Shown here: positions 3,707 through 41,582 of the stretch, piece by piece
How the letters are laid out: every line of letters begins with the position of its first letter
How positions within the stretch are numbered: position 1 is the stretch's first letter
NCBI GenBank assembly: GCA_963765125.1
Contig: CAVXUZ010000005.1
Coordinates: forward strand, 97,596 to 161,595
DNA from: an uncultured candidate division WWE3 bacterium
GTDB taxonomy: Bacteria > Patescibacteriota > WWE3 > UBA101185 > UBA10185
DNA length: 64,000 bases
Reading direction: 5' to 3'
Translations under genes and position numbers: made by a program
The notes under the pieces: model-generated
Seen by the model: the letters and a program-made list of their open reading frames with translations, nothing else
Told to the model about the DNA's origin: nothing
Database searches by the model: none

Positions 3707-5503
3707 TTACCACAGCTTGAGGCTTCTGGTCAAATAGATATTTTTAATTGTCTCAATTACCTCATCTATTTGAAGGTCGTTTTTCTGCTCTCCAGTTCTT
3801 AACCTGATACTCAATTTATTACTTTGGGCTTCCTTGTCACCTAAAACGATCATATACGGTATTTTTTGGTTTTGAGCGTCTCTGATCTTTGCTCCCATAG
3901 ATTCACTTTTATCATTCAGTTCAACTCTTAACCCTGCCTCGATTAACTTACTTTTCACAGTTTTTGCGTATTCTACGTGCTTATCGCTGATCGTAATAAT
4001 TTCTATTTGGATTGGTGATAGCCAAACTGGGAAATTACCACCGTAATGTTCGATTAAAAAGCCGACAAATCTTTCATGACTGCCGAGTGGAGCACGGTGA
4101 ATTACTGCACAAAGTTTCTTTTCACCATTCTGGTCGGCGTACTCGAGACCGAATCTGGTAGGCATATATAAATCGAGTTGATTTGTCGATATTGAAAATT
4201 CTCTACCGATTGATGAAATAATATTAAAATCTATTTTAGGTCCATAAAACGCTGCGCCACCGATGTCTTCAACTGTTTTAATTCCTGATTTTTCTATTGC
4301 GCTTCTCATAATCTTTTCTGCGAGGGCCCAGGTTTTCTTATCGCCGTGATATTTATCCCACTTTTCTGGATCAGGAAGACCTATGACAATGTAGTAATCG
4401 TCTCTGCTCAAACCTAAAATCTCATAATAATATTCATGTAGTTTAATTACGTCCAAAAACTCCTTTTCAGCGTCTTCCATCGTGCAGTAAACATGTGCAT
4501 CGTTTTGTGCAATCGACCTTACTCTCATAAGGCCAAAAAGTGTTCCAGATTGTTCAAACCTGTAAACTGTGCCGTATTCAGCATATCGTAGGGGTAAATC
4601 GCGGTATGATTTGGGCGAAGACTTAAATATTTCATGATGATGAGGGCAGTTCATGCCCTTAAGGTAATAGTCTTCGTCGTCAATGGTCATGGGGCTGTAC
4701 ATATCATCTTTGTAATATGGAAGGTGCCCTGAAATCTCATAAAGTTTACCTTTTGCAATATGCGGTGTAGCAACTCTGACATACCCCCACTCCTTTTCGG
4801 TTTCTTTTGCCCATCTCTCAAGCTCTTCCCTAATTACAGTTCCTTTAGGGGTCCACAAAGGAAGACCTGGGCCAACGTTATCTGAAAAAGTAAACAAATC
4901 TAACTCTTTGCCTAATTTTCTATGATCACGTTTTTTTGCCTCTTCTAGTCTGTTTAGGTAATCATCGAGTTTTTCTTTAGTCTCAAATGCGGTAGCATAA
5001 ATTCTTTGTAGCATTTTATTTTTTTCACTGCCTTTGTAGTAAGCTCCTGCTACGCTTAAAAGTTTAAACGCCTTTACGTCACCGGTTTTTTTCGTGTGGT
5101 GGCCCATACACAAATCCACGTCTCGTGGTTTTTCTTTATCTCCCATTACGCAGATAGTAATGTCCTCACCTCTTTTAACGATTTCATCTAGATTGTTCAG
5201 TTTATATTCATTTCCTTTAAATAACGCTTTAGCTTCTTTTTCGGTTACCTTCTCCATTTTTAACGGTAAATCAGCGTCGATAATCTCCTGCATTCTTTTT
5301 TCTATGGTTGGAAAGTCTTCGGGGCTAATAATTGTATCCAAATCAAAATCAAAGTAAAAACCATGCTCAATTGGCGGCCCCATAACAAGCTTAATATCAG
5401 GGTAAAGCTCACGCATTGCCGTATGAAGAACATGTTCAGCTGAATGCCTTAGTGGCATTAATGGATCATCTTTTAACTTTTCGATTACTTTTTCTTTTGA
5501 CAT
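3707..5503 (-). CDS. thrS: Threonine-tRNA ligase
   Basis: 598 aa with class II core motifs (YRFEQSGTLFGLMRVRS, GGAAFYGPKIDF) and the anticodon-binding C-terminus. Confidence 0.95.
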   Translation of the reverse strand: MSKEKVIEKLKDDPLMPLRHSAEHVLHTAMRELYPDIKLVMGPPIEHGFYFDFDLDTIISPEDFPTIEKRMQEIIDADLPLKMEKVTEKEAKALFKGNEYKLNNLDEIVKRGEDITICVMGDKEKPRDVDLCMGHHTKKTGDVKAFKLLSVAGAYYKGSEKNKMLQRIYATAFETKEKLDDYLNRLEEAKKRDHRKLGKELDLFTFSDNVGPGLPLWTPKGTVIREELERWAKETEKEWGYVRVATPHIAKGKLYEISGHLPYYKDDMYSPMTIDDEDYYLKGMNCPHHHEIFKSSPKSYRDLPLRYAEYGTVYRFEQSGTLFGLMRVRSIAQNDAHVYCTMEDAEKEFLDVIKLHEYYYEILGLSRDDYYIVIGLPDPEKWDKYHGDKKTWALAEKIMRSAIEKSGIKTVEDIGGAAFYGPKIDFNIISSIGREFSISTNQLDLYMPTRFGLEYADQNGEKKLCAVIHRAPLGSHERFVGFLIEHYGGNFPVWLSPIQIEIITISDKHVEYAKTVKSKLIEAGLRVELNDKSESMGAKIRDAQNQKIPYMIVLGDKEAQSNKLSIRLRTGEQKNDLQIDEVIETIKNIYLTRSLKLW

Positions 5504-5599: not shown

Positions 5600-6298
5600 G
5601 TGATAATTAACGTATACAAAGAAAAAAATTGGACAAGTTTTGATGTAGTTGCAAAGGTCAGGGGTTACCTAAGAGCAATTACTAGTGATAAAAAAATAAA
5701 AGTTGGGCACGCAGGCACTTTAGACCCGCTGGCAGAAGGTGTTCTGTTAGTACTAACTGGTGAAGATACAAAAAACCAAGATAGATTTATGGAATTTGAA
5801 AAAGAATACGATGCAGTGATAGGATTTGGTGTTGCATCTCCGACTTACGATCTCGAAGGACCATTAAAAATTACCAAACCAGTCAAAGACATAGATCTAA
5901 AAAATACTCTTGAAGAGAAGTTAACTAAGTATCTTGGAGAATTTGAACAAAAAGTACCTCCCTACTCTGCCGTAAAGGTAAGTGGCAAACCTTTATATAA
6001 AAGTGCACGCAAGGGCGACTTGTCTGAAAACATGCTTCCAGTGAAAAAAGTAAAAATATATGATATTAAAATTCTTGATTACGGAGTTAGAGAAAACATA
6101 GCTGGGGTAAGTATTCCCACGGTGAGAATTCTTGTAAGGTGTGCTAAGGGAACTTACATAAGATCTCTCGCGCACGATCTCGGTGAAGACCTCGGTGTTG
6201 GCGCAATTTTGCTAGATTTAATAAGAACAGGTGTTGGTGATTATCGTATCGAGAATTCTATAAAAATAAGTGAATTACCAAACAAATTAAAAATGTAG
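5600..6298 (+). CDS. truB: tRNA pseudouridine(55) synthase
   Basis: GTG start; GHAGTLDPLAEGVLLV catalytic motif. Confidence 0.9.
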   Translation: MIINVYKEKNWTSFDVVAKVRGYLRAITSDKKIKVGHAGTLDPLAEGVLLVLTGEDTKNQDRFMEFEKEYDAVIGFGVASPTYDLEGPLKITKPVKDIDLKNTLEEKLTKYLGEFEQKVPPYSAVKVSGKPLYKSARKGDLSENMLPVKKVKIYDIKILDYGVRENIAGVSIPTVRILVRCAKGTYIRSLAHDLGEDLGVGAILLDLIRTGVGDYRIENSIKISELPNKLKM

Positions 6299-7216
6299 AG
6301 TTTCTTTTTCCACCATTACCTTACTGATTTTGAGAAAGCCTGTCTTTTTAGCAACATAAAAAACAACGTTGATCATGATTGTATAAATCAGAAAGGTAAA
6401 GAACCCGATAAATTGCATCAACCCAAACATCAAAATAGCCATAACTGGGTTTAGAAACCTCTTGTAAGGTTCAATAATGTTATTTACTTCACTTTCTACC
6501 GTCGACCTAATTGACATCTTTGGCAAGTCAATATTTTTAAAATTAGGAAAAGCGTTTAATAGGGTAGAACTTTCTGAGTACTCAAGTTTCGCTGGATCCA
6601 GCCCCAATGCTGTAAGTCTATTTAATTGATCGGCAGGCAGCCCCTCATTTACTTGTTGAACCATTTCCTGATTAATTTTTGGTGCAATATACTTTTCCGC
6701 GAGATCAGCAGCTTTTGAGCCAAGGTTGAGTTCAGGTTGGCTGCCTGTTGAAATTAAAACGAGAATGGTTGCAGTGATACTGTATGCAAGAATAATTCCT
6801 TTTGAAGAGTACCTTAAGATAATATTAGGATTAAATTTAATCATTTGGTTACGTAAAAGACTCGCCAAAAAATTATCATAAATAATTAGCCAGATAACGA
6901 TAAAAGAGATGATAATGGCGTACGCAGAATTTATAGGGAAGATTACTAAAAATATACCTGCAGCTACTGATAAGGGTGCAAAAACAAACTGTTCCCATTT
7001 GTACCATGAACCAGAGCCAAGTGCGTTTGTTATTAGGATTAAAGTTAAAAACAGAACCGACAATCCCAAAAACTTAAAGTCGGGCGTGAAGTAGTTTTGT
7101 TTTTCAATAAACTGCGCGATAAGCTTTGTGAGTAAAAATGATTCACCAACAATAAATAAAGAAATCACAGTGGTTTTAATGTAATAAGAGAGTGTTTTTT
7201 TAACTGATTCATCCAC
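6287..7216 (-). CDS. Hypothetical polytopic membrane protein
   Basis: 309-aa ORF with multiple hydrophobic segments; no recognisable motif. Confidence 0.55.
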   Translation of the reverse strand: MDESVKKTLSYYIKTTVISLFIVGESFLLTKLIAQFIEKQNYFTPDFKFLGLSVLFLTLILITNALGSGSWYKWEQFVFAPLSVAAGIFLVIFPINSAYAIIISFIVIWLIIYDNFLASLLRNQMIKFNPNIILRYSSKGIILAYSITATILVLISTGSQPELNLGSKAADLAEKYIAPKINQEMVQQVNEGLPADQLNRLTALGLDPAKLEYSESSTLLNAFPNFKNIDLPKMSIRSTVESEVNNIIEPYKRFLNPVMAILMFGLMQFIGFFTFLIYTIMINVVFYVAKKTGFLKISKVMVEKETLHF

Positions 7217-7249
7217 CTATTTATGATAGCAGATATTTTGTAAAGAAAT

Positions 7250-7283
7250 AAAAAAAGGGCTGAAAGTAAATTAATTTCAGCCC
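7250..7283 (-). terminator. Rho-independent terminator (GGGCTGAAA...TTTCAGCCC hairpin plus U-run on the minus strand)
   Basis: Perfect 9-bp stem at 7257-7283 preceded on the + strand by an A7 run; directly downstream of the 7290 gene. Confidence 0.7.
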
Positions 7284-7289
7284 TAACTG

Positions 7290-7856
7290 TTATTGCGGAA
7301 TAAACTTCATACCCAGATCGTTTGTAATCGTTACCAGAAGTTCGAGTGTTTCTTGCGGACTAAGCGCTGATATACATTGATCGAGCACTTCAGCAAGCAT
7401 TATCATATCCTTTGTTTCTAAAGAGTGTGCGAGCGCCGCCTGTGAGACTACTTTGTTAATAGGCACCGACTGCGTAGGTTGGCTAGTGTTTTCTATGTAC
7501 CGCTGCTTAGCTTCTTGAAAAGCAACGTGAGGGCTAAAAAACATCGACCCAATGTACTGACGACCGATATAAAGCTCTTCCCAGGAGTATGAGGCGACCT
7601 TTATTGCCTCATCAACCCCGATCCCTGCTGCGAGATCCTTTAGTACGCACCTGAACTGCATGCGATCATTATTTCTAAAGGCTGCTTCTAAAACAAGAAA
7701 ACGTGAAAATACCCACTTTGCTTTATTTTGCTGGTAAAGCTTTAGCCCAGCCTCATCGACATCCCCCGGCACAAACATTTTCAACGTTGAAAATAATTCA
7801 TTCGGATCAAATTTTTCTTTTGTTACCGTATTGGAAACATCAAGTTGGTCACTCAT
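7290..7856 (-). CDS. Hypothetical protein (start moved to the internal ATG at 7856)
   Basis: The ORF-track N-terminal extension (7857-8087) runs into the tRNA-Val trailer repeats; the ATG at 7856 has an AGGGAGAT RBS. Confidence 0.5.
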   Translation of the reverse strand: MSDQLDVSNTVTKEKFDPNELFSTLKMFVPGDVDEAGLKLYQQNKAKWVFSRFLVLEAAFRNNDRMQFRCVLKDLAAGIGVDEAIKVASYSWEELYIGRQYIGSMFFSPHVAFQEAKQRYIENTSQPTQSVPINKVVSQAALAHSLETKDMIMLAEVLDQCISALSPQETLELLVTITNDLGMKFIPQ

Positions 7857-7983
7857 ATATATCTCCCTTCTCTGATAGTTGTGTGAAATTATAGCAGATT
7901 TATATAATTTTGGATAAAAGCGAACAGGTTTTTTGTGTGCACAAAAAAATACGTCCGCAAAAAATGCGGACTTAATTTTTATG

Positions 7984-8119
7984 GTGGCAAATCGTCGCTT
8001 TGCTCCTATTGCACGCCAACTCACTAAGCTCGAGTACGAGCAAGCGATTTGGTGGCAAATCGTCGCTTTGCTCCTATTGCACGCCAACTCACTAAGCTCA
8101 CTACGTTCGCTAAGTGATT
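7984..8119 (-). repeat. Two tandem ~67-nt copies of a tRNA 3'-trailer repeat abutting the tRNA-Val CCA end
   Basis: ggtggcaaatcgtcgctttgctcctattgcacgccaactcactaagctc appears twice (7984-8050, 8051-8119). The same motif family follows tRNA-Leu(TAG) at 17108-17137 and the tRNA-Trp 3' duplicate at 41268-41335. Confidence 0.8.
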
Positions 8120-8196
8120 TGGTGAGCCCACCTGGACTCGAACCAGGGACCTCTACGATGTCAACGTAGCGCTCTAACCAGCTGAGCTATGAGCTC
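8120..8196 (-). tRNA. tRNA-Val (anticodon GAC), CCA encoded
   Basis: Manual fold: acceptor GAGCUCA/UGGGCUC, anticodon stem CUACG/CGUAG with loop UUGACAU, T-loop UUCGAGU, terminal ACCA. Confidence 0.85.
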
Positions 8197-8322
8197 TCAC
8201 CTAAAAGCAATTACCAAACAACGAACTACAAAACGCAAGAAACAATATCTAAAGCATTGAGATTTTATCTGTAAAAACAATCAAAATCAATAGCAACAAT
8301 TACACATGCTTTATCAAAAAGA

Positions 8323-9909: not shown

Positions 9910-11146
9910 CTATTTCTGAAGCATTTTCAGTACTGGTAGCTCTTTTCCTGACAAAAACTCCAAAGAAGCCCCACCAGCAAGGCTTAAATGCGTTAGTTTT
10001 GATGTATCTGCGAACTTAAGGGCCGCTTCTACAGTATCTCCACCGCAAACGATGGTTGTTGCTTGTGAGGTTGTTTCCATAGCCTTTGCAACGCCTGCTG
10101 TGCCCTGTGAGAAGCCTTTTTCCTCAAACATACCCATTGGCCCATTCCAAAACACCATTTTTGAGGAGTTGATGACTTTTGTGTACAGTTCCACTGTTTT
10201 TGGGCCGATATCAAGGGCTTTTAGACCCATTTGGTACAAATTCGTACTTGTCAGTTACCTCATGGAGTGTTATTTCACCTGGATTTTTACCGTCTGAAGC
10301 GACGAATGCGTCTATTGGTGTAATTACTTTGCCGGGATTGTTCTGCATTATCTCCTTCGCGTATTCAACCCAGTCCTTCTTTTCTTTACGATTAGCATCG
10401 ACAAACTTATCTTCCATAAACGAAGCGCCCATCTCTTTACCGAGAGCTTTTAAAAACACGTTAGCTGTACCTCCACCAACTAGAATATGGTCAGTCTTTG
10501 AGATTAAATTATTTATTGCGTCGACTTTATCTGAAACCTTTGCTCCTCCGATGATTAGTGTAAAGGGATGTTCAGGATTCTCAATTAACTTTCCAAGTTC
10601 AGCAACTTCTTTTTCCATATATAAACCCGCTACTGCTGGTAAATGTCTAAGAATTCCTGTCGTTGATGCGTGTGCTCTATGCGCTTGAGGAAAACCATCA
10701 AATACTACTACTTCGCCATTTTTTGCTAGCTCCTGTGCAAAATTATCATCATCTAAATCCTCTTCAGGATGAAACCTCGTGTTTTCTAGCATTAGTATTT
10801 CTTTAGGATTTAATGTGGAAATTTTATTTCTTACCTCCTCGCCCACGCACTCATCAATCTTGATTACCTCTTGCCCTAAGAGCTCAGAAAGTTTTTTTGC
10901 ATGAGGTGTAGTTCTATATTTCTCTACAATTTTTCCTTCAGGCCTTTCTACATAAGTTAAAACAACAATTTTACAATTTTTATCTTGTAAATATTTAATT
11001 GTAGGGATTGTGGCTCGTATCCTTGAGTCGTCTTTTACAGCGTAAACCCCGTTTCCAAGGTCTTTTACCCCTATATCATAAGGCGATCTGTAAAGAACTG
11101 TTTTACCTGTTACATCAATGTCTTTAAGTGTTTTTAGATTAATCAT
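9910..11146 (-). CDS. pgk: Phosphoglycerate kinase, split by a +1 frameshift near 10211-10240
   Basis: ORF 10211-11146 is the PGK N-domain and ORF 9910-10239 is the PGK C-domain (DIGPKT..., GGGDT...). The frames overlap at ...EFVPNG / YQMGLKALDIGPKT. Confidence 0.85.
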
Positions 11147-16873: not shown

Positions 16874-17095
16874 TTATGGTTTGGTGATTTCTTTGCTTTG
16901 TTTCGAATACTTATCTATGAGTAGATAAATAATTGGTAGTATACCTACCGAGTTAATTACTAAAAGTGGAATAAACCAATATTTTTGTCCTCTTTGTGCT
17001 GATTTCCACAGAGCTATCCCTCTCCACACAGCATCCCAAGCAAGTGTAATAATAAAAACCAGCTTATTTTCAAATGTAAAATTAAAGTTGTTCAT
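16874..17095 (-). CDS. Small membrane protein (start moved to the ATG at 17095)
   Basis: The ORF-track extension overlaps tRNA-Leu; the internal start MNNFNFTFENK is followed by two TM helices. Confidence 0.45.
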   Translation of the reverse strand: MNNFNFTFENKLVFIITLAWDAVWRGIALWKSAQRGQKYWFIPLLVINSVGILPIIYLLIDKYSKQSKEITKP

Positions 17096-17137
17096 ATTGC
17101 ACTCCAACCCACTAAGCTCGAGTACGAGCAAGTGATT

Positions 17138-17222
17138 TGGTGGGCGGGGAGGGACTCGAACCCTCAATCCTTTCGGAACACGGTTCTAAGCCGTGCGCGT
17201 ATACCAATTCCGCCACTCGCCC
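17138..17222 (-). tRNA. tRNA-Leu (anticodon TAG), long variable arm, CCA encoded
   Basis: Manual fold: anticodon loop CUUAGAA, T-loop UUCGAGU, 3' CCCGCCCACCA. Immediately followed (17108-17137) by the conserved trailer motif actaagctcgagtacgagcaagtgattt. Confidence 0.8.
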
Positions 17223-25490: not shown

Positions 25491-25512
25491 TTGGTTGTGG
25501 TGACAGGACTTG
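25491..25512 (-). repeat. Partial duplicate of the tRNA-Pro 3' end (T-loop to CCA), att-scar-like
   Basis: Minus-sense CAAGTCCTGTCACCacaACCA versus the genuine CAAGTCCTGTCACCccgACCA, 18/21 identical; 700 bp from tRNA-Pro, same orientation. Confidence 0.6.
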
Positions 25513-25595: not shown

Positions 25596-26186
25596 CTAAT
25601 TATTTAAGTCTTGTAACAAACAAAAAAGTGTGTTGTCCAAGTTCCGCATTTTACAACAAAATATACTAACTTGATTTTTTAAAGTTTCAAAATAGTCATT
25701 AGACTTTGGGTCCTCGTATTTGTCGTAAGCTTCTTGAATAAGCATTGTCAACTCATGCAACCATGATTCATAGAGTCTAGTATCCATGCTCTTCATAGTA
25801 GGTGAAAGCGCGTTATCTTCAATTTCAGCACTAATTGGTAGGGGAAAACTTTTTGGGTACTTTTGTGATAGATACACGAAAAAATTATCTGCTATGGAAA
25901 GTCTCTCGTCGAGTTTAGGCATTTCGGGCGCGTCTTGAATGGGTACAGGAAAACCCGCACTTTTAAATTCCGATACCTCAATCATATTTCTGGCTAGTTG
26001 TTTTTGAAACTCAGGATCTAATATACTCTGGGTCTCAGTGTTATAGCCGCTCTTTTTAATTTCTTCAGCCCAGTAGCTATTTTGTAGTAATCCCCCATCG
26101 AGCTTCTTGTCCAAGTAATCATAATTTATGGGTTTTTCATTTTCGGTGTGGGTGTCTTCTTGATTATAAGTCTCAAAGTTAAGCAT
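25596..26186 (-). CDS. Hypothetical protein (single gene enclosed between tRNA-Pro and its 3'-end duplicate)
   Basis: 196-aa ORF. Confidence 0.45.
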   Translation of the reverse strand: MLNFETYNQEDTHTENEKPINYDYLDKKLDGGLLQNSYWAEEIKKSGYNTETQSILDPEFQKQLARNMIEVSEFKSAGFPVPIQDAPEMPKLDERLSIADNFFVYLSQKYPKSFPLPISAEIEDNALSPTMKSMDTRLYESWLHELTMLIQEAYDKYEDPKSNDYFETLKNQVSIFCCKMRNLDNTLFCLLQDLNN

Positions 26187-29908: not shown

Positions 29909-30229
29909 ATGAAATTTAATTTAAGATTTGTATATTTGTATTTAGTCTCATTTATTGGTTTAGTAGTATGCGTTGTTGCGTTGGTTAGCCTTGTTGATTT
30001 GGGTATTAAATCTACATTGTTTAAAGACGCAGATAAGTATGAGTATTACAACCCAGGTGTTGAAGACATCAAATATGACGAAGAATTGGCAAAAAGATCA
30101 GCGGAAGTAGAACAAGCACGATCTAGACAACGCACAGTTTCAAACTCTGTAGCTATGTTATTAGTTGGTGCACCTCTCTATTTATACCACTGGAGAGTAA
30201 TTCAGAGGGAGTTTAAAAAGATTAGTTAG
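29909..30229 (+). CDS. Hypothetical two-TM protein
   Basis: 106-aa ORF. Confidence 0.4.
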   Translation: MKFNLRFVYLYLVSFIGLVVCVVALVSLVDLGIKSTLFKDADKYEYYNPGVEDIKYDEELAKRSAEVEQARSRQRTVSNSVAMLLVGAPLYLYHWRVIQREFKKIS

Positions 30230-30288
30230 TATTTTTATTTGGTGGACTAGAAGCGACGACGTGTTAACTATTTAGGAATTTTAGTACT

Positions 30289-31875
30289 TCAGAACGAATC
30301 CATATCTGTTTGATAGTGATTTATTTTAAGATCTATGTTTGTTTCATAAAGTTTTTCTAATATTCTTTTTTCCTCAAGTATGCTCGTTTTATCTAATACT
30401 ACATTTGACGGTATAGAAATTGTTACATCGCAAGTAATGGTTAGGTTGTCTAGTTGATCGGCTGCGTCTATCGCGTCAATACTGCTAATTGAAATTGATT
30501 TTAATTCACCCTCTGGAACTACCCTAGATATCATTTCCGCAAGATCGTTTTTTATTTTTGATAACTTATCATCCTGGGTCCCTCTTAGGCTAATAATAGG
30601 CACTAACGTAATATCTAAATTTATTTTTATCCCCGTGTCCTTCTCTACATCAGCCTGCAGGGTGTCTTTATCTTTGCTAGAAAAACCATTTGTTGGGTTA
30701 ATTCGTAATACCGTAGCTACATTCCATATATCGGACACTTTAGCTATTTCGACAGTACTTATCTGTATAGAGGAATCCTTGTTAAAAATATATTTTTTAA
30801 GTGAGTCAATAATTTTAACTTTAATGCTATCATTTTGTTCTTTTTCTGCGCTGACTATTGAGAGTGCTCTCTGAATACTAAACGAAACATCTACCTTGCT
30901 GTTTAGTGTTGTTTCGAGTTTGGAAATAATTGAATTTTGTTGTTGATAATCAATAATTACATCTTCTGGTACTATAACGTCCGCTGCAATGTACACAGTA
31001 TTTCCATCAGGAGAGTATTTTATATCTGTTTGTATATTTTGAACCACGACCTTTTTTGATATTTGTTTTAATGACTCTTCGATTATGTTTTTACTCTTAT
31101 CATAAACACTGTTTTGAAATGAATAATCTTTTAGATAAAGCAAAAGAGGGAGCGCGGTAATTACGAGTATGGCAGTTATTGTAATAAATCCTTTTATCCG
31201 TATTTTTGTACCGTCTCTGCTGTTTATACCTGTCAAGCTAAACACAATAGTCGAAATAAAAATAATCGATATTATGTTAGCAAAAAAAAGCATAAATCCG
31301 CCGGTGGATACCTCATAGTTTTGGAGCGCCAGACCAATTCCAGAGACACACAGTGGTGGCATAAGCGCGGTGGCAATAGCTACACCTGCTAAACTATCCG
31401 AAATCTTCTTTTGTACAATTGACAGCGCAGCAATCATTCCGGCAGCTAGCGCGATGATGATGTCTAGTAATGTCGGTGATGCCCTAGCCAAAATCTCTTT
31501 GCTTAAAAGCTTTATCGGAGAAAAGTAGGTTATCGCGTAAGCGCTTAAAATTGCTATAAACATTGAAAAAATTAAGAGCTTCATAGCTTGAAATAATTGA
31601 TTTTTATTATCCGACGCAACCCCCAACGATATTTTCATAAGTGGCCACATTAGAGGAGATATAAGCATTCCTCCAATTATTACCGGAGGTGAATTTAATA
31701 TTAACCCTAAGGAACACACTGTCGTTGCTGATATCAATAAAATAAAAAAGCTTATTGATGCTTGTGAGTAAATACTAACTTTTTGTACCACTGCATTCCT
31801 GTCAATATTTTTTAGGTCATTTACGAGCTTCATTTTTTGCTCAAGAAAGTCAAAAAGCGCGAGTAATATATTCAT
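30289..31875 (-). CDS. DUF389-family membrane protein
   Basis: GGMLISPLM...LAGVAIATALMPPLC conserved DUF389 block, followed by a large extracytoplasmic C-terminal domain. Confidence 0.55.
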   Translation of the reverse strand: MNILLALFDFLEQKMKLVNDLKNIDRNAVVQKVSIYSQASISFFILLISATTVCSLGLILNSPPVIIGGMLISPLMWPLMKISLGVASDNKNQLFQAMKLLIFSMFIAILSAYAITYFSPIKLLSKEILARASPTLLDIIIALAAGMIAALSIVQKKISDSLAGVAIATALMPPLCVSGIGLALQNYEVSTGGFMLFFANIISIIFISTIVFSLTGINSRDGTKIRIKGFITITAILVITALPLLLYLKDYSFQNSVYDKSKNIIEESLKQISKKVVVQNIQTDIKYSPDGNTVYIAADVIVPEDVIIDYQQQNSIISKLETTLNSKVDVSFSIQRALSIVSAEKEQNDSIKVKIIDSLKKYIFNKDSSIQISTVEIAKVSDIWNVATVLRINPTNGFSSKDKDTLQADVEKDTGIKINLDITLVPIISLRGTQDDKLSKIKNDLAEMISRVVPEGELKSISISSIDAIDAADQLDNLTITCDVTISIPSNVVLDKTSILEEKRILEKLYETNIDLKINHYQTDMDSF

Positions 31876-31965
31876 GTGAAAACTATATCAGTTAAGCCAT
31901 TTAAGTTAAAGCTAAGCACAAATGTTTTTGCAGAAAATAAAGCTGATACAACAGCTAAATATTTA

Positions 31966-31980
31966 TGGTGGGCGAAGAGG
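31966..31980 (-). repeat. 15-nt duplicate of the tRNA-Leu(UAA) 3' end (tggtgggcgaagagg)
   Basis: Identical to the 3' end of the tRNA-Leu at 36750-36835, 4.8 kb away. Confidence 0.55.
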
Positions 31981-32084
31981 TATCTTTCACTTCGTTAAAG
32001 TTGCATCCACAACGACTAAACTCGCCTCGCTCGTTAAGTCTTGTGTAGGAGTCAAAGACATCCCTACTGCTCCATCAAAACAAA

Positions 32085-32148
32085 AAATCCAACCACAAGG
32101 GTTGGTTTTTCTTTTGTTTGGTGGGCCATCTGTCAGGATGTGCGAACT
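32085..32148 (+). repeat. Hairpin-plus-T-run, then 30-nt repeat tggtgggccatctgtcaggatgtgcgaact (copy 1)
   Basis: CCAACC-acaag-GGTTGG stem and T-run at 32085-32117; the 30-mer at 32119-32148 is identical to 33888-33917. Confidence 0.6.
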
Positions 32149-32192
32149 ATTTATATAGAAATTGTCGTCGGGCTATAAAGCTTGGCTGAACT

Positions 32193-32753
32193 TTATTGCA
32201 TTAGTGGAAAATCCCTGCTCTCCGTAATTTGGGTGAAGGTATCATTTAGTATTGCGAATGTTATGGTGTTCAAGTTAAAGGTAAAGTCAAAGTTTAAGTT
32301 CTTAGCTTCTTCTAAAGCCTGTTTATATAACGGTTCATCTAAGGGTACTTTTGTCGGATTTTTCAGATCGTATTGAGCGTTCTTATCTACAAACTGGCCT
32401 AGTCCAACATGTGGTATAAATTCAATATCTTTTCTTAAGAATTGTTCAAGCATCCCTGTATATAAGATATCGTGCAATTTAATTATTTCCTCCCTTCCTT
32501 CTTCTAAGGTTAAAAATAAGAAGTTATCCCAGGATTTAGTTAGACCTTTAATGTGTGCGTTAAAGCTTTTAAAACTCTTCAACCTATCTCACACATGTTC
32601 TAAAAGTAAATCCTCAGAGATCGATTTAGCTGAGATTGGAAATACTATAGTTACATGTGGCCTAATAAGATTGAACTGTGTGTCGTACTTTTTTCTGAAA
32701 CCATCTATCTTATCCAATTCAGATTTTACATACGCTACTAAAACAAAATACAT
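32193..32753 (-). pseudogene. 2H-phosphoesterase (LigT/CPDase-like) gene with an in-frame TGA at 32589-32591
   Basis: The upstream segment MYFVLVAYVKSELDK...RPHVTIVFP (H-x-T-x motif 1) is in the same frame as ORF 32193-32582 (..FIPHVGLGQF, motif 2), separated by a single TGA. Confidence 0.5.
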
Positions 32754-32782
32754 ATTTGCAATTCTATATTAAAATCTCCAAA

Positions 32783-32802
32783 AGTTCGACTCCCTCATGG
32801 GT
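32783..32802 (+). repeat. 20-nt direct repeat agttcgactccctcatgggt (inverted partial copy of the tRNA-Leu T-loop/acceptor)
   Basis: Matches agttcgactccctcttgggt at 36550-36569, one mismatch, same orientation, 3.77 kb apart. Confidence 0.55.
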
Positions 32803-32869
32803 TTGTCGAAAAAGAGGTTGATATGACAACTATAAGTCTATGGTGAGCCATCGTAGAGGATGTTTGGAA

Positions 32870-33487
32870 CTATTGCATTGCTGAAGTACCACTTAGATGA
32901 GATGTATCGTCAAATACAACTGGTGTAATTGTATTTTCCTCAAAGTCAAAGATTGAGATTGAAGCATTCTTTGGATCGTACTTGAATGATTCTTTTTTAG
33001 GTACTGACAATAAATAAGGCATTAGTGCTCTAATAGATCCTCCGTGAGTTACTATTCCAATTACAGCATTACTATTATCAGTATTTACTTGTTTAATATT
33101 ACTTATAAGTCGATGTTCGAAGTCTTTCCATGACTCACCTTTAGGCGGTACGAAGTCATAACGCTGTTCAAGAGATAACGGATCAAGAACAGTTTTTATT
33201 TCAGACCAGGGTTTTCCTGAATAATCTCCCCAGTTCCTTTCTTCCATGCCTGTAAGCGGTATAACTGGTATATTGCAAATCTTACTGATTATTTCAGCAC
33301 TTTGTAGTGCCCGAAATTCATTAGATGCATATAAAACATTGCAATTCAGTTCTTTCAACTTTTCACTTGTCTGTTGTATTTGTCTTATACCATTTTCAGT
33401 TAAATTATCAGGATCACCAAACTTATGTAACACATTTTTAACATTTGTTGCAGTTTCACCGTGTCTTACTAAAATTAATCTATTCAT
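32870..33487 (-). CDS. Histidine phosphatase-family protein (phosphoglycerate-mutase-like)
   Basis: N-terminal LVRHGETATN catalytic RHG motif; 205 aa. Confidence 0.7.
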   Translation of the reverse strand: MNRLILVRHGETATNVKNVLHKFGDPDNLTENGIRQIQQTSEKLKELNCNVLYASNEFRALQSAEIISKICNIPVIPLTGMEERNWGDYSGKPWSEIKTVLDPLSLEQRYDFVPPKGESWKDFEHRLISNIKQVNTDNSNAVIGIVTHGGSIRALMPYLLSVPKKESFKYDPKNASISIFDFEENTITPVVFDDTSHLSGTSAMQ

Positions 33488-33564
33488 TAGGATATTTTAA
33501 CAGAAAGTTCTAAATTCTCTCTTGGGTATATAAAAATAATGTTGTTGTGACAGTGTAAATTCTT

Positions 33565-33917
33565 TGGTGGGCGAGGAGGGAGTCGGTCACATGTTTTTCA
33601 TCTCTAGCTCATTACACTCGCAAGATCTGAAAGCATTCGATCCCGCCTCCTTCACTTCGTTCAGTCCGGTATTCGCCTCCTACTTTTACCAACAAAAAAG
33701 TGTCCATCAAACCTTTAGGTCTGCTGTACACTTTTCTGGTGGGCGAAGAGGGAGTCGGTCACCTGTTCTCGCCTGCTGGCTCGCCAGTCGACCCCGGCTC
33801 GGCACCGTCGTGCCTGCGCCTTTCGCCTCCCTTACTAGTCATAAGAAAAAAATATCCGGCATTGTAGCCGGCTATCTTTTTCTGGTGGGCCATCTGTCAG
33901 GATGTGCGAACTGCTTT
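33565..33917. repeat. Tandem att-scar-like array: two 26-nt tRNA-Leu(UAA) 3'-end duplicates, each followed by a core element, then hairpin plus 30-nt repeat copy 2
   Basis: tggtgggcgaGgagggagtcggtcac at 33565-33590 and tggtgggcgaagagggagtcggtcac at 33737-33762. Each is followed by a core related to 36599-36715. CCGGC-attgta-GCCGG hairpin plus T-run at 33856-33885, then the 30-mer at 33888-33917. Confidence 0.65.
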
Positions 33918-33955
33918 AGTTACTATTAACTACTAAAAAGTCTTAAAATAGATAT

Positions 33956-34798
33956 ATGTTGTATCATAGTGTCATGGAATTAAAAACAGCTAAGTTACAA
34001 AAACATTTCTACATGTACTGCGCGATGTTTTACGCAGATAATCGTACTATCGGTCATAAAGATTGGGTCTCAGAACTTAAAGATAAAGTTATTACTGCAC
34101 TTGAGAAATCAAACACACCAAAACTAGATATGCCCATGCATAGCTACCATTACCTTATGGGAATATTTAATCCAGAAGGTTACGAGGACCATGGGAGATT
34201 AATGATTCCTCCTAAAGAAGTTTTAGATTATGTTGAGCGAGTATCCGCACTCCCGGAATTACAAGAAATATGGAAACAATACGAGCCTGATTTTGATACT
34301 AGACTTAAGGATTTTGAGGAGCGTTTTATTGATATAGAAAACCTTTTTAAAAACCATTTTGATTATGAGCCTGATATTAAAACCTTTTATTTAACAAGAA
34401 ATTGGGATACATCGGGAAAATGTATTATAACTAAAGATGGTTACTACATTTTAGTTGGGTGGAAAAAAGAGGGCATAAATTTAAACCAAATACTACATGA
34501 ATTAACTCACAGTTATTTAGATAAATGTACATTAACCATTCCGAGGGACGTAAACGATTACCTTAAAAAAATGCCAGAGGAAGTTTTAGGATCTTATGCG
34601 AATCCCCATGCTTATATAGAAGAATCCATAATCCGGGCACTTGTATTGTATTTAAGTCATTCGGAAGAAAATATACAAAACTATTCTTTAGTAGGAACCG
34701 ACTTGGATATGATATTACCTGCAAAGTACTTAGATGTTTTGGAAAAAGATAAGCCCGAAAAGTTAACTATAGAATATCTCAATAAACTAGCCTATTAA
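33956..34798 (+). CDS. Hypothetical HExxH protein (putative zinc metallopeptidase)
   Basis: 280 aa with QILHELTHSY; adjacent to the Cys-rich peptide/rSAM pair. Confidence 0.45.
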   Translation: MLYHSVMELKTAKLQKHFYMYCAMFYADNRTIGHKDWVSELKDKVITALEKSNTPKLDMPMHSYHYLMGIFNPEGYEDHGRLMIPPKEVLDYVERVSALPELQEIWKQYEPDFDTRLKDFEERFIDIENLFKNHFDYEPDIKTFYLTRNWDTSGKCIITKDGYYILVGWKKEGINLNQILHELTHSYLDKCTLTIPRDVNDYLKKMPEEVLGSYANPHAYIEESIIRALVLYLSHSEENIQNYSLVGTDLDMILPAKYLDVLEKDKPEKLTIEYLNKLAY

Positions 34799-34888
34799 TA
34801 AACATTATTTTTGCTAAGAAAAGGTAAAGGGACTACTTCCAAGTGTATAAGAAGTAATCCCTTTTTTGGTGACGCTTGCCGGTAGTCT

Positions 34889-35050
34889 TTAGTCTTTTGG
34901 ACAGGACTGATCGTGCGGGCACGGGTCGTTGGTATTGCCACTGCAGGAATGCCCAGAACAATCTGACGAACACTTGCCGTCGGAAGGGCAATCAGCAAAG
35001 GCAGCTAACTGAGGTTGCCAGCGAACAACTTGCGTGAAATCGGTACCCAT
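34889..35050 (-). CDS. 53-aa six-cysteine RiPP-precursor-like peptide (SCIFF-like), not in the ORF track
   Basis: AAGGAG RBS 8 nt upstream of the ATG at 35050, 19 nt after the rSAM stop. Product MGTDFTQVVRWQPQLAAFADCPSDGKCSSDCSGHSCSGNTNDPCPHDQSCPKD. About 50% GC in a ~33% GC genome. Confidence 0.6.
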   Translation of the reverse strand: MGTDFTQVVRWQPQLAAFADCPSDGKCSSDCSGHSCSGNTNDPCPHDQSCPKD

Positions 35051-35069
35051 TGTCGTTTTCTCCTTTCTT

Positions 35070-36401
35070 TTAGAATTCGGACAACATGTCTTGTAGAAGC
35101 AGTAGCTTCACAATTATACAAGACTCTTGAAAAGTGTTCTCGCCTAAGTATCTAGAAATCGGACAGAAACCTTGGCAATTCCACCTTGCAAAACAATTTG
35201 AACACAGGTTTTTAGGTAATCCTCCATGTACCACAATGCGTGCGTGAGCATCGGGATTCATTACAGGTACCTGTGTGGTAGACCCAAAACTTCCATAGAA
35301 GAACAGTTCAGAGCCTGGATGCTGCTTCTTTGTGATACGCGAGCATCCGGAGACTGAACCATCGGGGCATACGCAAAACATTGTGCCTGTACTTGCTCCA
35401 CAGAATTGTAATTTATCTCTGCGGAATGTATCCAAAGTGCAAACAACGCGTAAACCTAGTTCCACTCCTATCCTACGAGCTTCTGTGTAGTATTTTACAA
35501 AAAGCCCCGGATCAACATCTAAATCAGTGGCGCCACTTGCTTTACCACAAAGTGATAGCGGCTCAAAGTGCACGAGTCCGTTCACTCCGTTTAACGCTTC
35601 TTTAGCAAGGAACCTTACAAAATTCGGCATTTCCTCCACACTCTTACTTGTTACTGTGGCACGAATAGAAAATGCTAGGCCAGCAGCCTTCAGATTTGCA
35701 ACCCCTTTCATGGCTGCTTTGAAAGAACCTTTGCCACCTACCATAGGGCGTTGCAGGTCTTGCACTGTTGCGACACCATCCAATGAGATTGTGATGTTAT
35801 CAACATTGTGTGACTTCAGCCATTCTGCAAACTTTGTAGTAATCAGTGTGGCGTTAGTCACTATGCTCACATGCAGTGTTATATCAAGCTTCTCGGCCAC
35901 TTGTAAGGCGTATAGGACGCATACCTTGAGCAGATTCTTTCGCTTCAGAGATTCCCCACCACCATGAAATGTTAGGGTGAAGTGTTTTCTGCCGCGGGAC
36001 TGTGCTAAACGCAATGCATAACTTATTGCGTTCTTTGCTACATCTTCAGGGATAGTTGTAGAATCACAACCCGCCTTTGCGTAGCAGTAGATACACCGAA
36101 GATTGCAGTCGTTGGTTAAAGATAAAGTAATTCCTTGCTCCCCAGGTAACGATTGAGTCGGTAAAGACCAATGTTCCGGAAGTGCGAGTAACCCGTTATC
36201 TGAAAGAAACTTAACCATAACTGGGTTGAATCCGTCTGCAGTACTGCCTTCTGAAACTGCAGAAATTAGCGTCTGAAGTTGTTCTGCTCCGCCTTGTGAT
36301 AACTTGGTTACCAAGCCATGCAATGGGGCATACAACAAGAAAGACGGTTCGTTCGGATACAGAATAAGAAAAAGCCAATCTTTAGGCTTTAGTGTGTCCA
36401 T
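35070..36401 (-). CDS. Radical SAM / SPASM-domain peptide-modifying enzyme
   Basis: CNLRCIYCYA (CxxxCxxC) and a C-terminal Cys cluster (CGASTGTMFCVCPDGSVSGC...CSNCFARWNCQGFCP) typical of SPASM. Start moved to MDTLKPKD (GAGAGGAG RBS). GC-richer than the surrounding sequence. Confidence 0.8.
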   Translation of the reverse strand: MDTLKPKDWLFLILYPNEPSFLLYAPLHGLVTKLSQGGAEQLQTLISAVSEGSTADGFNPVMVKFLSDNGLLALPEHWSLPTQSLPGEQGITLSLTNDCNLRCIYCYAKAGCDSTTIPEDVAKNAISYALRLAQSRGRKHFTLTFHGGGESLKRKNLLKVCVLYALQVAEKLDITLHVSIVTNATLITTKFAEWLKSHNVDNITISLDGVATVQDLQRPMVGGKGSFKAAMKGVANLKAAGLAFSIRATVTSKSVEEMPNFVRFLAKEALNGVNGLVHFEPLSLCGKASGATDLDVDPGLFVKYYTEARRIGVELGLRVVCTLDTFRRDKLQFCGASTGTMFCVCPDGSVSGCSRITKKQHPGSELFFYGSFGSTTQVPVMNPDAHARIVVHGGLPKNLCSNCFARWNCQGFCPISRYLGENTFQESCIIVKLLLLQDMLSEF

Positions 36402-36549
36402 CGCATCTTTTCTCCTCTCGATGATTATTTGATTTGTTGGCGTATTTATAGCATGAAAATGGCAATACCTCAATTTAAGATCTATTAACATGAGGCTATC
36501 TTTTTTTAAATGTGGGAAAATATAATTAAGTTTATGCCGTAAACACAAG

Positions 36550-36598
36550 AGTTCGACTCCCTCTTGGGTATTTGGTGGGCGAAGAGGGAGTCGGTCAC
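36550..36598. repeat. Inverted-repeat hairpin built from the tRNA-Leu 3' end: 20-nt repeat (36550-36569) plus 26-nt 3'-end duplicate (36573-36598)
   Basis: GTTCGACTCCCTCTT-gggtatttggtgggcg-AAGAGGGAGTCG, a perfect 12-bp inverted repeat. Confidence 0.65.
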
Positions 36599-36715
36599 AT
36601 GTCTTTCAACTCTAAATTCGCTCAAGCTCATTAAGATTTGAAAGCATTCGACCCCGCCTCCTTCACTCACTTCGTTCGCTCAGTCCGGCATTCTCGTCTC
36701 TCCTCAAAATGAAAA
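36599..36715 (-). repeat. Conserved ~115-nt non-coding core element (tRNA-3'-end-associated mini-element, copy B)
   Basis: gtcacatgtctttcaactctaaattcgc(tc)aagctcattaagatttgaaagcattcgacccc... is about 90% identical to 41362-41470 next to tRNA-Trp, with diverged copies at 33591-33700 and 33763-33850. Confidence 0.7.
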
Positions 36716-36748
36716 AGCTGAAAGTATTAAAACACTTCCAGCTTTTCC
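36706..36748 (-). terminator. Rho-independent terminator of tRNA-Leu(UAA)
   Basis: AAAAGCTG...CAGCTTTT 8-bp stem directly 3' of the tRNA, with a U-run on the minus strand. Confidence 0.55.
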
Positions 36749-36749
36749 A

Positions 36750-36835
36750 TGGTGGGCGAAGAGGGAGTCGAACCCTCACGTCCTAATGGACAAGAGATTT
36801 TAAGTCTCTCGTGTCTGCCATTCCACCACTCGCCC
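36750..36835 (-). tRNA. tRNA-Leu (anticodon TAA), long variable arm, CCA encoded
   Basis: Manual fold: anticodon loop CUUAAAA, T-loop UUCGACU, 3' CUCUUCGCCCACCA. Confidence 0.85.
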
Positions 36836-41245: not shown

Positions 41246-41267
41246 ACTTTTTTAGTATAAATCTGGA

Positions 41268-41505
41268 GGCAAATCGTCGCTAACGCTCCTATTGCATCTC
41301 AGAGTTCTAAAGCTCACTTTGTTCGCTAAGTGCTTTGGAGCGGAAAACGGGATTCGGTCACATGTCTTTCAACTCTAAATTCGCAAGCTCATTAAGATAT
41401 GAAAGCATTCGACCCCACCTCAGTCGCTTACGCTCCTTCCGGCATTCTCGTCCCCTATTCCCCATGAATAAGCCCACTAACCCTTTGGGTTACTGCGCAT
41501 CTTCA
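41268..41505 (-). repeat. tRNA-Trp-associated mini-element: core copy C (41362-41505), 26-nt duplicate of the tRNA-Trp 3' end (41336-41361), then trailer-repeat copy (41268-41335)
   Basis: tggagcggaaaacgggattcggtcac duplicates the T-loop-to-CCA segment of the adjacent tRNA-Trp. The core is about 90% identical to 36599-36715. The trailer aaagcacttagcgaacaaagtgagc...gcgacgatttgcc resembles the trailers after tRNA-Val and tRNA-Leu(TAG). Confidence 0.7.
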
Positions 41506-41582
41506 TGGAGCGGGAAACGGGATTCGAACCCGCGACCTCCTCCTTGGAAGGGAGGCGCTCTAGCCAGCTGAGCTATTCCCGC
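41506..41582 (-). tRNA. tRNA-Trp (anticodon CCA), CCA end encoded
   Basis: Manual fold: acceptor GCGGGAA/UUCCCGC, anticodon stem CCUCC/GGAGG with loop CUUCCAA, T-loop UUCGAAU. Confidence 0.85.

Follow-up and report, generated by a model that had tools for sequence, protein, structure and literature searches.

tRNA genes are classic landing sites for mobile DNA. To our knowledge, the elements that land there are kilobase-sized, encode their integrase and duplicate 15-50 nt of tRNA sequence. In the window analysed here (the whole stretch of 64,000 nt), a repeat of about 70 nt directly adjoins encoded CCA ends of tRNA genes, which raises the question of what this repeat is and how it came to lie there. 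A sequence-only reading of the window had described it as two tandem 67-nt units behind tRNA-Val, with the same motif behind tRNA-Leu(TAG) and behind a displaced 3' duplicate of tRNA-Trp. It had proposed either a conserved tRNA 3'-processing signal or terminator, or an att-like or mobile repeat. We assigned the following features.

8262..8290, minus strand: sigma-70-like promoter upstream of tRNA-Val (consensus match only)
8120..8196, minus strand: tRNA-Val(GAC), discriminator A73, CCA encoded
8050..8119, minus strand: trailer unit Val1, 70 nt, ends GCCACCA
8117-8113 paired with 8093-8089: outer stem P1 of the Val1 5' hairpin, enclosing stem P1a
8086-8050, minus strand: 3' domain of Val1
7982..8049, minus strand: trailer unit Val2, 68 nt, with a 5' hairpin apex (GCUCG-UACU-CGAGC) unlike that of Val1
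7944..7971, minus strand: intrinsic terminator after Val2, GTCCGCA..TGCGGAC (7971-7953) plus a T run
17138..17222, minus strand: tRNA-Leu(TAG), A73, CCA encoded
17087..17137, minus strand: decayed trailer unit behind tRNA-Leu(TAG) (E about 3e-4)
31967..32043, minus strand: hybrid relative of the unit (covariance-model E = 0.02)
41506..41582, minus strand: tRNA-Gly(TCC), discriminator U73
41336..41505, minus strand: 170-nt mini-element inserted after the CCA of tRNA-Gly(TCC), a separate element family
41359-41336, minus strand: displaced T-loop-to-CCA copy of tRNA-Gly, which is the end of the mini-element
41264..41335, minus strand: Gly-type trailer unit, 72 nt, ends GCCTCCA, with 2 mismatches in P1

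All 6 tRNA genes in the window lie on the minus strand and encode CCA. Val1 and Val2 stand head to tail, the first directly after tRNA-Val, and both end in ...TTTGCCACCA. The tandem arrangement against the CCA was as first described; the length was not, the two copies measuring 70 and 68 nt and units in general 68-72 nt. The 3' 50 nt of Val1 and Val2 are identical, and the first 20 nt differ and hold two hairpin apex types. A 30-mer of the unit occurred twice in the window (0.00 expected by chance), and the 3' motif AGCGACGATTTGCCNCC occurred three times (0.18 expected). Both nhmmer and a covariance model recovered full units, at E-values between 1e-9 and 1e-21. Tandem Repeats Finder did not report the two-unit Val array in the window, since it holds no more than two copies and these differ in their 5' parts. 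A unit does follow tRNA-Leu(TAG), not as the clean 30-nt motif placed at 17108-17137 but as a decayed unit (17137-17087) running into an ATG (GCAATATGAAC). Here the 5' hairpin, which belongs to the Val2 type, has stayed intact, and the 3' domain, which contains this ATG, is degenerate from GCAAT on. At the third locus, the tRNA at 41506-41582 proved to be tRNA-Gly(TCC) with U73 rather than tRNA-Trp. The trailer behind its displaced 3' duplicate was confirmed as a full 72-nt unit at 41335-41264. In the hybrid, a 5' hairpin like that of the trailer is joined to TGCAA and to 16 nt copied from the 3' end of tRNA-Leu.

Since a promoter-like site precedes tRNA-Val and a terminator follows Val2, a single transcription unit is predicted for the tRNA and both units. 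The N-terminal extension of the open reading frame (ORF) at 7290-8087 had been called an artefact, and we agree: the extra part spans the terminator and one unit, and the real start is marked by an ATG at 7859 with a GGGAG ribosome-binding site. The downstream 189-aa ORF had no Pfam match.

We scanned public sequence collections for further units. A strict pattern matched 3 contigs among 185,579 species genomes. A looser pattern gave 4 matches in a metagenome collection, 2 of them true and 2 (L005 and L007) chance matches permitted by the variable gap of the pattern. Both scans used exact patterns, so the true distribution of the units is underestimated. Units were present in five public contigs from related uncultured bacteria.

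L002: tRNA-Gly(CCC), then a unit
L001: tRNA-Gly(CCC), then a 169-nt mini-element, a displaced tRNA end and a unit
L003: tRNA-Ile(GAT), then two tandem units (L003a and L003b), the second with a 32-nt insert in the 3' hairpin
L004: tRNA-Ile(TAT), then a unit
L006: ClpP and tRNA-Val(GAC), then a unit, with the gene order of the window

Every true match in these contigs begins directly behind the encoded CCA of tRNA-Gly, tRNA-Ile or tRNA-Val or behind a preceding unit. We then searched the window and 23 loci (330 kb) with nhmmer, all filters off, and with the covariance model. The 9 full units, the decayed unit and the hybrid all adjoin a CCA, be it that of a tRNA, a displaced tRNA fragment or a previous unit. 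The hybrid was the only extra match, and neither method found a copy away from a tRNA end in the 330 kb. Two contigs of closer relatives, L026 and L027, ended or became chimeric before the informative region. A blastn search in distant mode found no match to the unit in phage and plasmid collections, and the trailer pattern had no match in viral contigs. All inferences below rest on 9 full units from about 6 organisms. These data support the view that the repeat behind tRNA ends is a specific family attached to encoded CCA ends.

The 3' end of the unit reads GCC-N-CCA, and N was the discriminator base of the preceding tRNA in 9 of 9 full units. A-type ends (CACCA) stand behind tRNA-Val, tRNA-Ile(GAT) and tRNA-Ile(TAT), and U-type ends (CUCCA) behind tRNA-Gly(TCC) and tRNA-Gly(CCC). 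The decayed Leu(TAG) unit has lost its 3' end and was not scored. What unit and tRNA have in common is C-N73-CCA, the last five bases of the tRNA. We also looked for a T-box-like pairing of the NCCA end with UGGN, in which N would complement position 73. In the model register, the 3 Gly units had A opposite U, but in the 6 A-type units the A faced C or G. Another register, GGUG:CACC, bulges a C and gives A73 a U as its partner, so that the outcome depends on the alignment.

A general tRNA 3'-processing signal or terminator of the lineage, as first proposed, would account for a position immediately 3' of the CCA and for predicted transcription with the tRNA. We hold it to be extremely improbable. 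In the window, tRNA-Pro, tRNA-Arg and tRNA-Leu(TAA), three of the six, have no unit behind them, and neither have about 20 tRNAs at related loci; all of these encode CCA, and tRNAs with and without a unit did not differ in CCA encoding, a difference that the sequence-only reading had suggested looking for. Just two of the six window tRNAs, Val and Leu(TAG), have a unit directly behind them, that at Gly(TCC) standing behind the displaced fragment. The unit contains no U tract, and the Val array is followed by a separate intrinsic terminator of its own. The unit is also rare in public data (3 of 185,579 species genomes with the strict pattern; 2 true metagenome matches with the looser one). At the orthologous ClpP-tRNA-Val locus, the trailer was absent in 7 related lineages (L008/9, L010, L012, L015-17, L018/19 and L021-23), including the closest relative compared (ClpP identity 84%, tRNA identity 92%). 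A terminator directly follows the CCA at the unit-less locus, and the window and L006 are where this locus has a unit. By its ClpP homologues, the window falls within the candidate phyla radiation (CPR), most likely in candidate division WWE3; an exact look-up of its ClpP protein had no match. These results contradict a general processing or terminator role. The L010 sequence reads CCA|TAAGAAAAG-terminator and that of the window CCA|[138 nt]|TAAAAATT-terminator, a pair that agrees with an exact insertion or an exact deletion.

Comparison among units shows a grouping by type and not by genome alone. The Gly unit of the window was 88-89% identical to the Gly units of L001 and L002, and 70-79% identical to the Val units of the window. 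L003a and L003b were 77% identical, the 32-nt insert being in L003b. Dissimilar units gave rise to tandem arrays on two occasions, once as Val1/Val2 and once as L003a/L003b.

Other DNA has been inserted at tRNA ends. We found displaced copies of the T-loop-to-CCA segment at three tRNAs of the window.

25507-25492: displaced Pro copy, after a single ORF
36588-36573, 33752-33737, 33580-33565 and 31981-31966: four displaced Leu(TAA) copies
41351-41336: displaced Gly copy

These copies of the last 16 nt of a tRNA mark the borders of mini-elements or cassettes at Gly, Pro and Leu, not trailer units. Such classical tRNA-end insertions, with a gene or mini-element inside, occurred in the window (Gly, Pro and Leu(TAA)) and in L001 (Gly); displaced T-loop-to-CCA copies were not found in the relatives without trailers. 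A 17-mer of the mini-element had two matches in viral contigs, both in coding regions and due to chance. A hairpin module (AGCGAACGNAGTGAG) is common to trailer and mini-element.

The trailer had been read as an older 3' flank into which the core of the mini-element inserted. The order of events stands: L002 and L001 represent the empty and the filled site for the mini-element, with the trailer present in both, and the trailer therefore predates the ~170-nt mini-element. The 169-nt insertion of L001 ends in a 16-nt copy of the tRNA end, followed by the trailer. In L002, a HIT-gene cassette lies directly after the trailer CCA, between CTCCA|GATGTTTGAARTTCCGA repeats. In a deeper sense, the trailer is not ancestral. 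In the WWE3 genomes L015-17, Gly(TCC), Arg and Leu(TAA) form a compact cluster with 14-nt spacers and no trailer, whereas in the window about 4.1 kb and 0.46 kb lie between them, with accessory genes (NUDIX, glycosyltransferase, radical SAM and HIT). This difference assigns the unit to inserted material rather than to an ancient flank.

Among the readings first offered, the att-like or mobile repeat fits best. We tentatively favor, at somewhat less than an even chance, an insertion module: a miniature, non-coding and non-autonomous element that enters directly behind the CCA, renews its target in doing so and shares the transcript of the tRNA. It would be inserted in trans by a site-specific enzyme, for which we consider two candidates: a tyrosine-type recombinase crossing over within C-N73-CCA, or a single-strand (HUH-type) enzyme reading the hairpin foot. 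With C-N73-CCA as reaction core, the target would be re-created at the unit's own end on each insertion. The re-created target would admit a second unit or other DNA (mini-element, gene cassettes) after either CCA. Core identity would limit units with a U end to U73 tRNAs and those with an A end to A73 tRNAs, and the resident unit would be transcribed passively as a tRNA 3' trailer. We consider insertion the best reading because of the zero-spacer junctions behind six tRNAs, the discriminator-matched ends and the recurrent dissimilar tandems, and also because of presence and absence at orthologous sites, unit types that cross genomes and co-occurring insertions after the CCA. It is from the observed position, structure, distribution and end match that we infer an act of insertion, an enzyme and a single-stranded intermediate. 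The enzyme is hypothetical, because Pfam searches of ~58 window ORFs and 10 ORFs of L002 and L003 found no integrase, transposase, HUH enzyme, recombinase or reverse transcriptase. Several points speak against an insertion module. The duplicated core of 5-6 nt is much shorter than the 16-24-nt copies of the classical insertions in the same genome, and a 70-bp double-stranded circle is implausible as an intermediate. The two hairpins are dissimilar, unlike IS200/IS605 ends, and terminal inverted repeats are not conserved. Copy number is low, and the L001 and L002 units are apparently under purifying selection.

We next assessed the structure of the unit, for which a curated and a model-based alignment agreed. 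The 5' hairpin has an outer stem P1 (5-7 bp), an inner stem P1a and an apex flanked by GA...GA. Both sides had changed in 8 of its 11 pairs, and 95.7% of cells were paired; when the partner strand was slid as a control, pairing dropped to 27-46% of cells. The covariation check proposed earlier was clearly positive, with a score for the 5' helix of 0.366 vs 0.181 in shuffles (reached by 0 of 500). G-U pairs outnumbered C-A pairs (6 vs 1), and the tRNA-sense strand folded better in 9 of 9 units (mean -19.4 vs -14.9 kcal/mol). The G-U pairs and predicted folding point to a structure of the tRNA-sense strand, as RNA or single-stranded DNA, and the better sense-strand folding suggests a single-stranded form (ssDNA or RNA) as the one that is active or selected.

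The 3' domain follows the almost invariant order UGGNG/UGAG - U - GCAAU - AGGAGC - N3-4 - GCG(A/C)CGA - (U/A)UUGC - C-N-CCA. Being almost invariant, it offers covariation that neither supports nor contradicts its fold. The conserved pairing is that of GCAA(U) with (A)UUGC. The GCAAA-gcgacga-TTTGC mini-hairpin, earlier ascribed to every unit, is present in the two Val units but only there (relatives have GCGCA, GCGTT or GCGAA). Its likening to a T-arm plus CCA minihelix did not survive: the mini-hairpin lacks conservation, predicted minimum-energy folds pair the C-N-CC bases and leave no free tail, and Rfam searched permissively (E up to 10) gave a tRNA-model match at the true tRNA only. With Rfam 15, only tRNAs reached the gathering threshold in the window, and nothing credible appeared at E up to 10 at both loci. 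A Shine-Dalgarno role of the invariant AGGAG was rejected, as the spacing to start codons is wrong except at the decayed Leu copy.

These structures also lend support to the main and serious rival to an insertion module: that the unit is a host-selected trailer RNA, released after the tRNA CCA and acting as a stable sRNA or as a processing or insulating module. We judge this unlikely, though well worth weighing. A helix plus N-CCA would give a tRNA-like, exonuclease-resistant and repairable 3' terminus. Such an RNA is in keeping with the predicted transcription unit of promoter-like site, tRNA, two units and terminator, with sense-strand-specific hairpins that covary and contain G-U pairs, and with a same-strand gene starting 10-30 nt after the unit at 5 of 7 loci. 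Precedents are the E. coli rtT RNA (tyrT trailer) and sRNAs derived from tRNA 3' external transcribed spacers (3'ETS). The orthologous units of L001 and L002 were 93% identical with differences confined to loops, while the intergenic flanks could not be aligned; the flanking proteins were 70-77% and the tRNA 97% identical. This looks like purifying selection on the resident copy, and host function would fit too. The identities of the flanking proteins and the tRNA make the taxon labels of the two contigs (WWE3 for L001, 'Saccharibacteria' for L002) unreliable, and cross-phylum spread was rejected. The window Gly unit, cut off from its tRNA by the terminator-bearing mini-element, is the only one with P1 mismatches, which also favors a trailer RNA; however, the L001 unit is likewise displaced from its tRNA and its P1 is intact. 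A trailer RNA leaves the zero-spacer position behind six tRNAs and the discriminator tracking unexplained. Most relatives and most tRNAs do without the unit; it has decayed at the Leu(TAG) locus, and its own CCA is predicted to be paired rather than free. The genes downstream of units are unrelated to each other (NUDIX, HIT, HD, a possible acetyltransferase and unknowns). An insertion module and a trailer RNA are not exclusive, because a mobile module can be a functional RNA too.

Two other explanations are less likely than the trailer RNA. Displaced tRNA fragments mark the ends of tRNA-integrating islands (Islander, PMC4383910), and serial integration beside tRNAs is known from tycheposons (bioRxiv 10.1101/2020.12.28.424599). 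By this precedent, the unit could be a recombination-site relic, an att arm left at a tRNA/island junction, with the 3' domain a protein-binding site in double-stranded DNA. The unit does always lie at the border between a tRNA and variable accessory genes, every relative has a variable hot spot downstream of tRNA-Val, and the 3' domain is conserved in sequence without covariation. We nevertheless regard a relic as improbable. The units lack the long tRNA copy and the GACC junction signature, unlike the true att duplicates of the window, and a search to the right of the Val locus gave no island-side repeat. Compensatory changes and a G-U bias in the 5' hairpin are unexpected for a double-stranded binding site, and directly tandem units are hard to derive from island ends.

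Spread through RNA would instead explain why the DNA boundaries match expected mature RNA ends, why units stand head to tail with zero spacer and why structure is sense-strand-specific. A reverse transcriptase would copy processed unit RNA (5' A... to ...CCA 3'), beginning at 3' CCA ends or jumping to them from another template, and cDNA concatemers (tRNA-CCA/unit-CCA/unit-CCA) would recombine into tRNA genes. The reverse transcriptase of the Mauriceville retroplasmid, which starts at the 3' CCA and captures tRNAs, provides a precedent. We think this origin very improbable: neither the window nor the loci yielded a reverse transcriptase, the discriminator match is unexplained and the right-hand junction would require a second mechanism.

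The insertion module that we prefer could belong to something larger. Unit, 170-nt mini-element and CCA-ended cassette borders may be parts of one undescribed CPR system, in which the tRNA 3' end (helix plus N73-CCA) would anchor like attI and modules would be added serially, each with a mimic of the tRNA end. The unit would then be the minimal self-propagating, gene-less module, and an enzyme recognising tRNA-like ends would move it as folded ssDNA or RNA. We offer this extension as speculative and rather doubtful.

If the unit is a true insertion module, it would be the smallest tRNA-end-specific element described, rebuilding with 70 nt the last five bases of the tRNA including the discriminator. 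Such an element would also illustrate how hot spots of insertion can grow by themselves in the very small genomes of candidate-phyla bacteria. If it is a selected trailer RNA instead, it would be a new conserved RNA motif of tRNA 3'-end metabolism, from organisms in which RNA processing has hardly been studied. On either reading, annotators gain a defined motif in place of a unit that now creates false ORF extensions.

We compared the unit with known systems. A type III antitoxin of the ToxI kind was rejected, as the 189-aa ORF downstream had no Pfam match and other units precede unrelated genes. A riboswitch or 5'-UTR of nucleotide hydrolases was rejected on anatomy or on the unrelated downstream genes, and a tRNA mimic or decayed tRNA on the lack of a tRNA-model match and of a conserved T-arm. 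A MITE was also rejected: end complementarity (AAATCGCTTGCTC / GAGCAAAGCGACGATTT) is present in the window Val2 unit only and absent in L003, L004 and L006.

Integron attC sites resemble the unit in size range (57-141 nt), in conserving structure more than sequence in part, in strand-specific folding, in a variable insert at a hairpin apex (32 nt in L003b) and in the same-strand single-gene cassettes nearby. However, the unit has an invariant 3' domain, precedes genes and is anchored at a tRNA CCA rather than attI, with no IntI. An attC identity was rejected, as unit ends show no RYYYAAC/GTTRRRY core sites on either strand.

PATEs (IS200/IS605) and REP/REPIN sequences are likewise tiny and non-coding, with one-strand hairpins in fixed orientation, and insert 3' of a short specific sequence without classical target duplication; all units here begin after C-N-CCA on the tRNA strand. 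In contrast to their similar subterminal hairpins, the left and right hairpins of the unit are dissimilar: the 5' hairpin is variable and covarying, and the 3' hairpin is invariant and unrelated in sequence. The target is the element's own 3' end, the units are few and confined to tRNA ends, and the 64-kb window holds no TnpA/RAYT.

Functional RNAs cut from tRNA trailers offer a further comparison. The sRNA 3'ETS-leuZ comes from a tRNA 3' external transcribed spacer and is cut out by tRNA processing, and the unit could likewise be a functional RNA made from a tRNA trailer in this way. Unlike the unit, 3'ETS sRNAs are single-locus and lineage-specific, do not occur behind several tRNAs and have neither a CCA-mimicking end nor tandem units. 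In E. coli, the tyrT trailer consists of 178-bp units, each ending in the tRNA-Tyr 3' end, and yields the rtT RNA. The link between rtT and tyrT is mentioned in bioRxiv 10.1101/2024.07.17.603846. Like these repeats, the units lie in tandem in a tRNA 3' trailer, carry a copy of the tRNA terminus with CCA and are co-transcribed (here by prediction). They differ in having no sequence or Rfam similarity, in being shorter and in starting with zero spacer from the CCA. They also occur behind six tRNAs in several organisms and copy only C-N73-CCA.

Finally, we compared the unit with tRNA islands and tycheposons. The unit repeats 5-6 nt of the tRNA end vs 16-48 nt in islands; it is 68-72 nt long and gene-less, with its own two-hairpin anatomy, direct tandems and no integrase nearby. 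In an Islander-type test, a direct repeat of at least 15 nt of the tRNA was absent from the units, and the bounded element contained no integrase. The likeness to these systems is one of place and habit: a site at the tRNA 3' end, a distal copy of the tRNA end, repeated insertions at the same spot and accessory genes downstream.

The ~170-nt mini-elements, a family separate from the 68-72-nt trailer unit, insert immediately 3' of the CCA of tRNA-Gly and tRNA-Leu(TAA). Three parts make up each element: a terminator-like hairpin, a core that is conserved (GAGAATGCCGGA...GGGGTCGAATGCTTTC-hairpin-GAAAGACATGTGACCGA), and 16-24 nt copied from the T-loop-to-CCA segment of the tRNA. We located the following copies.

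Window 41336-41505, minus strand: mini-element copy
Window 36573-36749, minus strand: mini-element copy
Window about 33565-33736, minus strand: mini-element copy
Window 33737-33870, minus strand: mini-element copy
L001 (related contig with tRNA-Gly(CCC)) 1517-1685: mini-element copy

The mini-element fold is very stable (z = -3.4 to -6.0), and the 5' part is complementary to the element's own tRNA-derived 3' part. We observed no family match for the mini-element in Rfam. The related contig L002 represents the empty site of the L001 copy.

tRNA-Pro(TGG) is separated by a single ORF from a displaced copy of its own T-loop-to-CCA segment. The ORF had no Pfam match. The displaced copy is preceded by GACC, a junction signature also found in the mini-element.

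Window 25492-25507: displaced tRNA-Pro T-loop-to-CCA copy, 2 substitutions
Window 25596-26186: ORF, 196 aa

Directly after the L002 trailer unit is a HIT-family gene bounded by 22-nt direct repeats, and the surrounding DNA holds several more copies of a TTYRAAGTTCCRA motif, which could be recombinase-binding sites. In L003, where two tandem units follow tRNA-Ile(GAT), a hairpin-forming insert sits at the exact junction GCAAT / AGGAGC of the second unit; therefore, the 3' hairpin apex of the trailer unit tolerates insertions.

L002 4298-4319 and 4974-4995, minus strand: 22-nt direct repeat CTCCAGATGTTTGAARTTCCGA
L003 3970-4001, minus strand: 32-nt insert GAGCAACGCTTGCCTTTTGCTTCGCAAAACGT

The rRNA operon spacer is disrupted in L003 (1-7886), with the 16S gene ending at 442 and the 23S gene starting at 4802. 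The two are separated by about 4 kb of accessory genes, which comprise NUDIX, a glyoxalase-like gene and unknowns. tRNA-Ile(GAT), together with both trailer units, has the opposite orientation to tRNA-Ala and the 23S gene. The tRNA end is duplicated by a gap in the assembly (run of N) in this contig.

The tRNA-Val to truB interval is a variable hot spot (window 5600-8200; orthologous loci L008-L023), where the small genes differ by lineage and include Cupin_2, GGACT, aldose epimerase, VTT and unknowns. Phosphoglycerate kinase is apparently carried by two overlapping ORFs of 311 aa and 109 aa (window 9910-10239 and 10211-11146, minus strand). This split appears to reflect a frameshift or sequencing error; the gene is intact in the related contig L027 (422 aa).

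Downstream of tRNA-Leu(TAA) is an array of single genes, all on the same strand (window 30200-36750, minus), namely radical SAM, histidine phosphatase, 2'-5' RNA-ligase-like and DUF389 genes. The spacers between them are short and each has a ...CACCA end; four of these copy the Leu 3' end. Inverted tRNA-Leu T-arm copies lie just beyond borders with CCA ends; the result is a head-to-head palindrome whose centre is close to the CCA.

Window 33912-33877 and 32148-32113, minus strand: 36-nt repeat AGTTCGCACATCCTGACAGATGGCCCACCA
Window about 32855-32825 and 30269-30234, minus strand: looser relatives of this repeat
Window about 36546-36567 and 32782-32799: inverted T-arm copies CCCAAGAGGGAGTCGAACTCTTG and CCATGAGGGAGTCGAAC

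We did not observe an integrase within the 64-kb window holding the array. The layout resembles a cassette array with the tRNA as its anchor.
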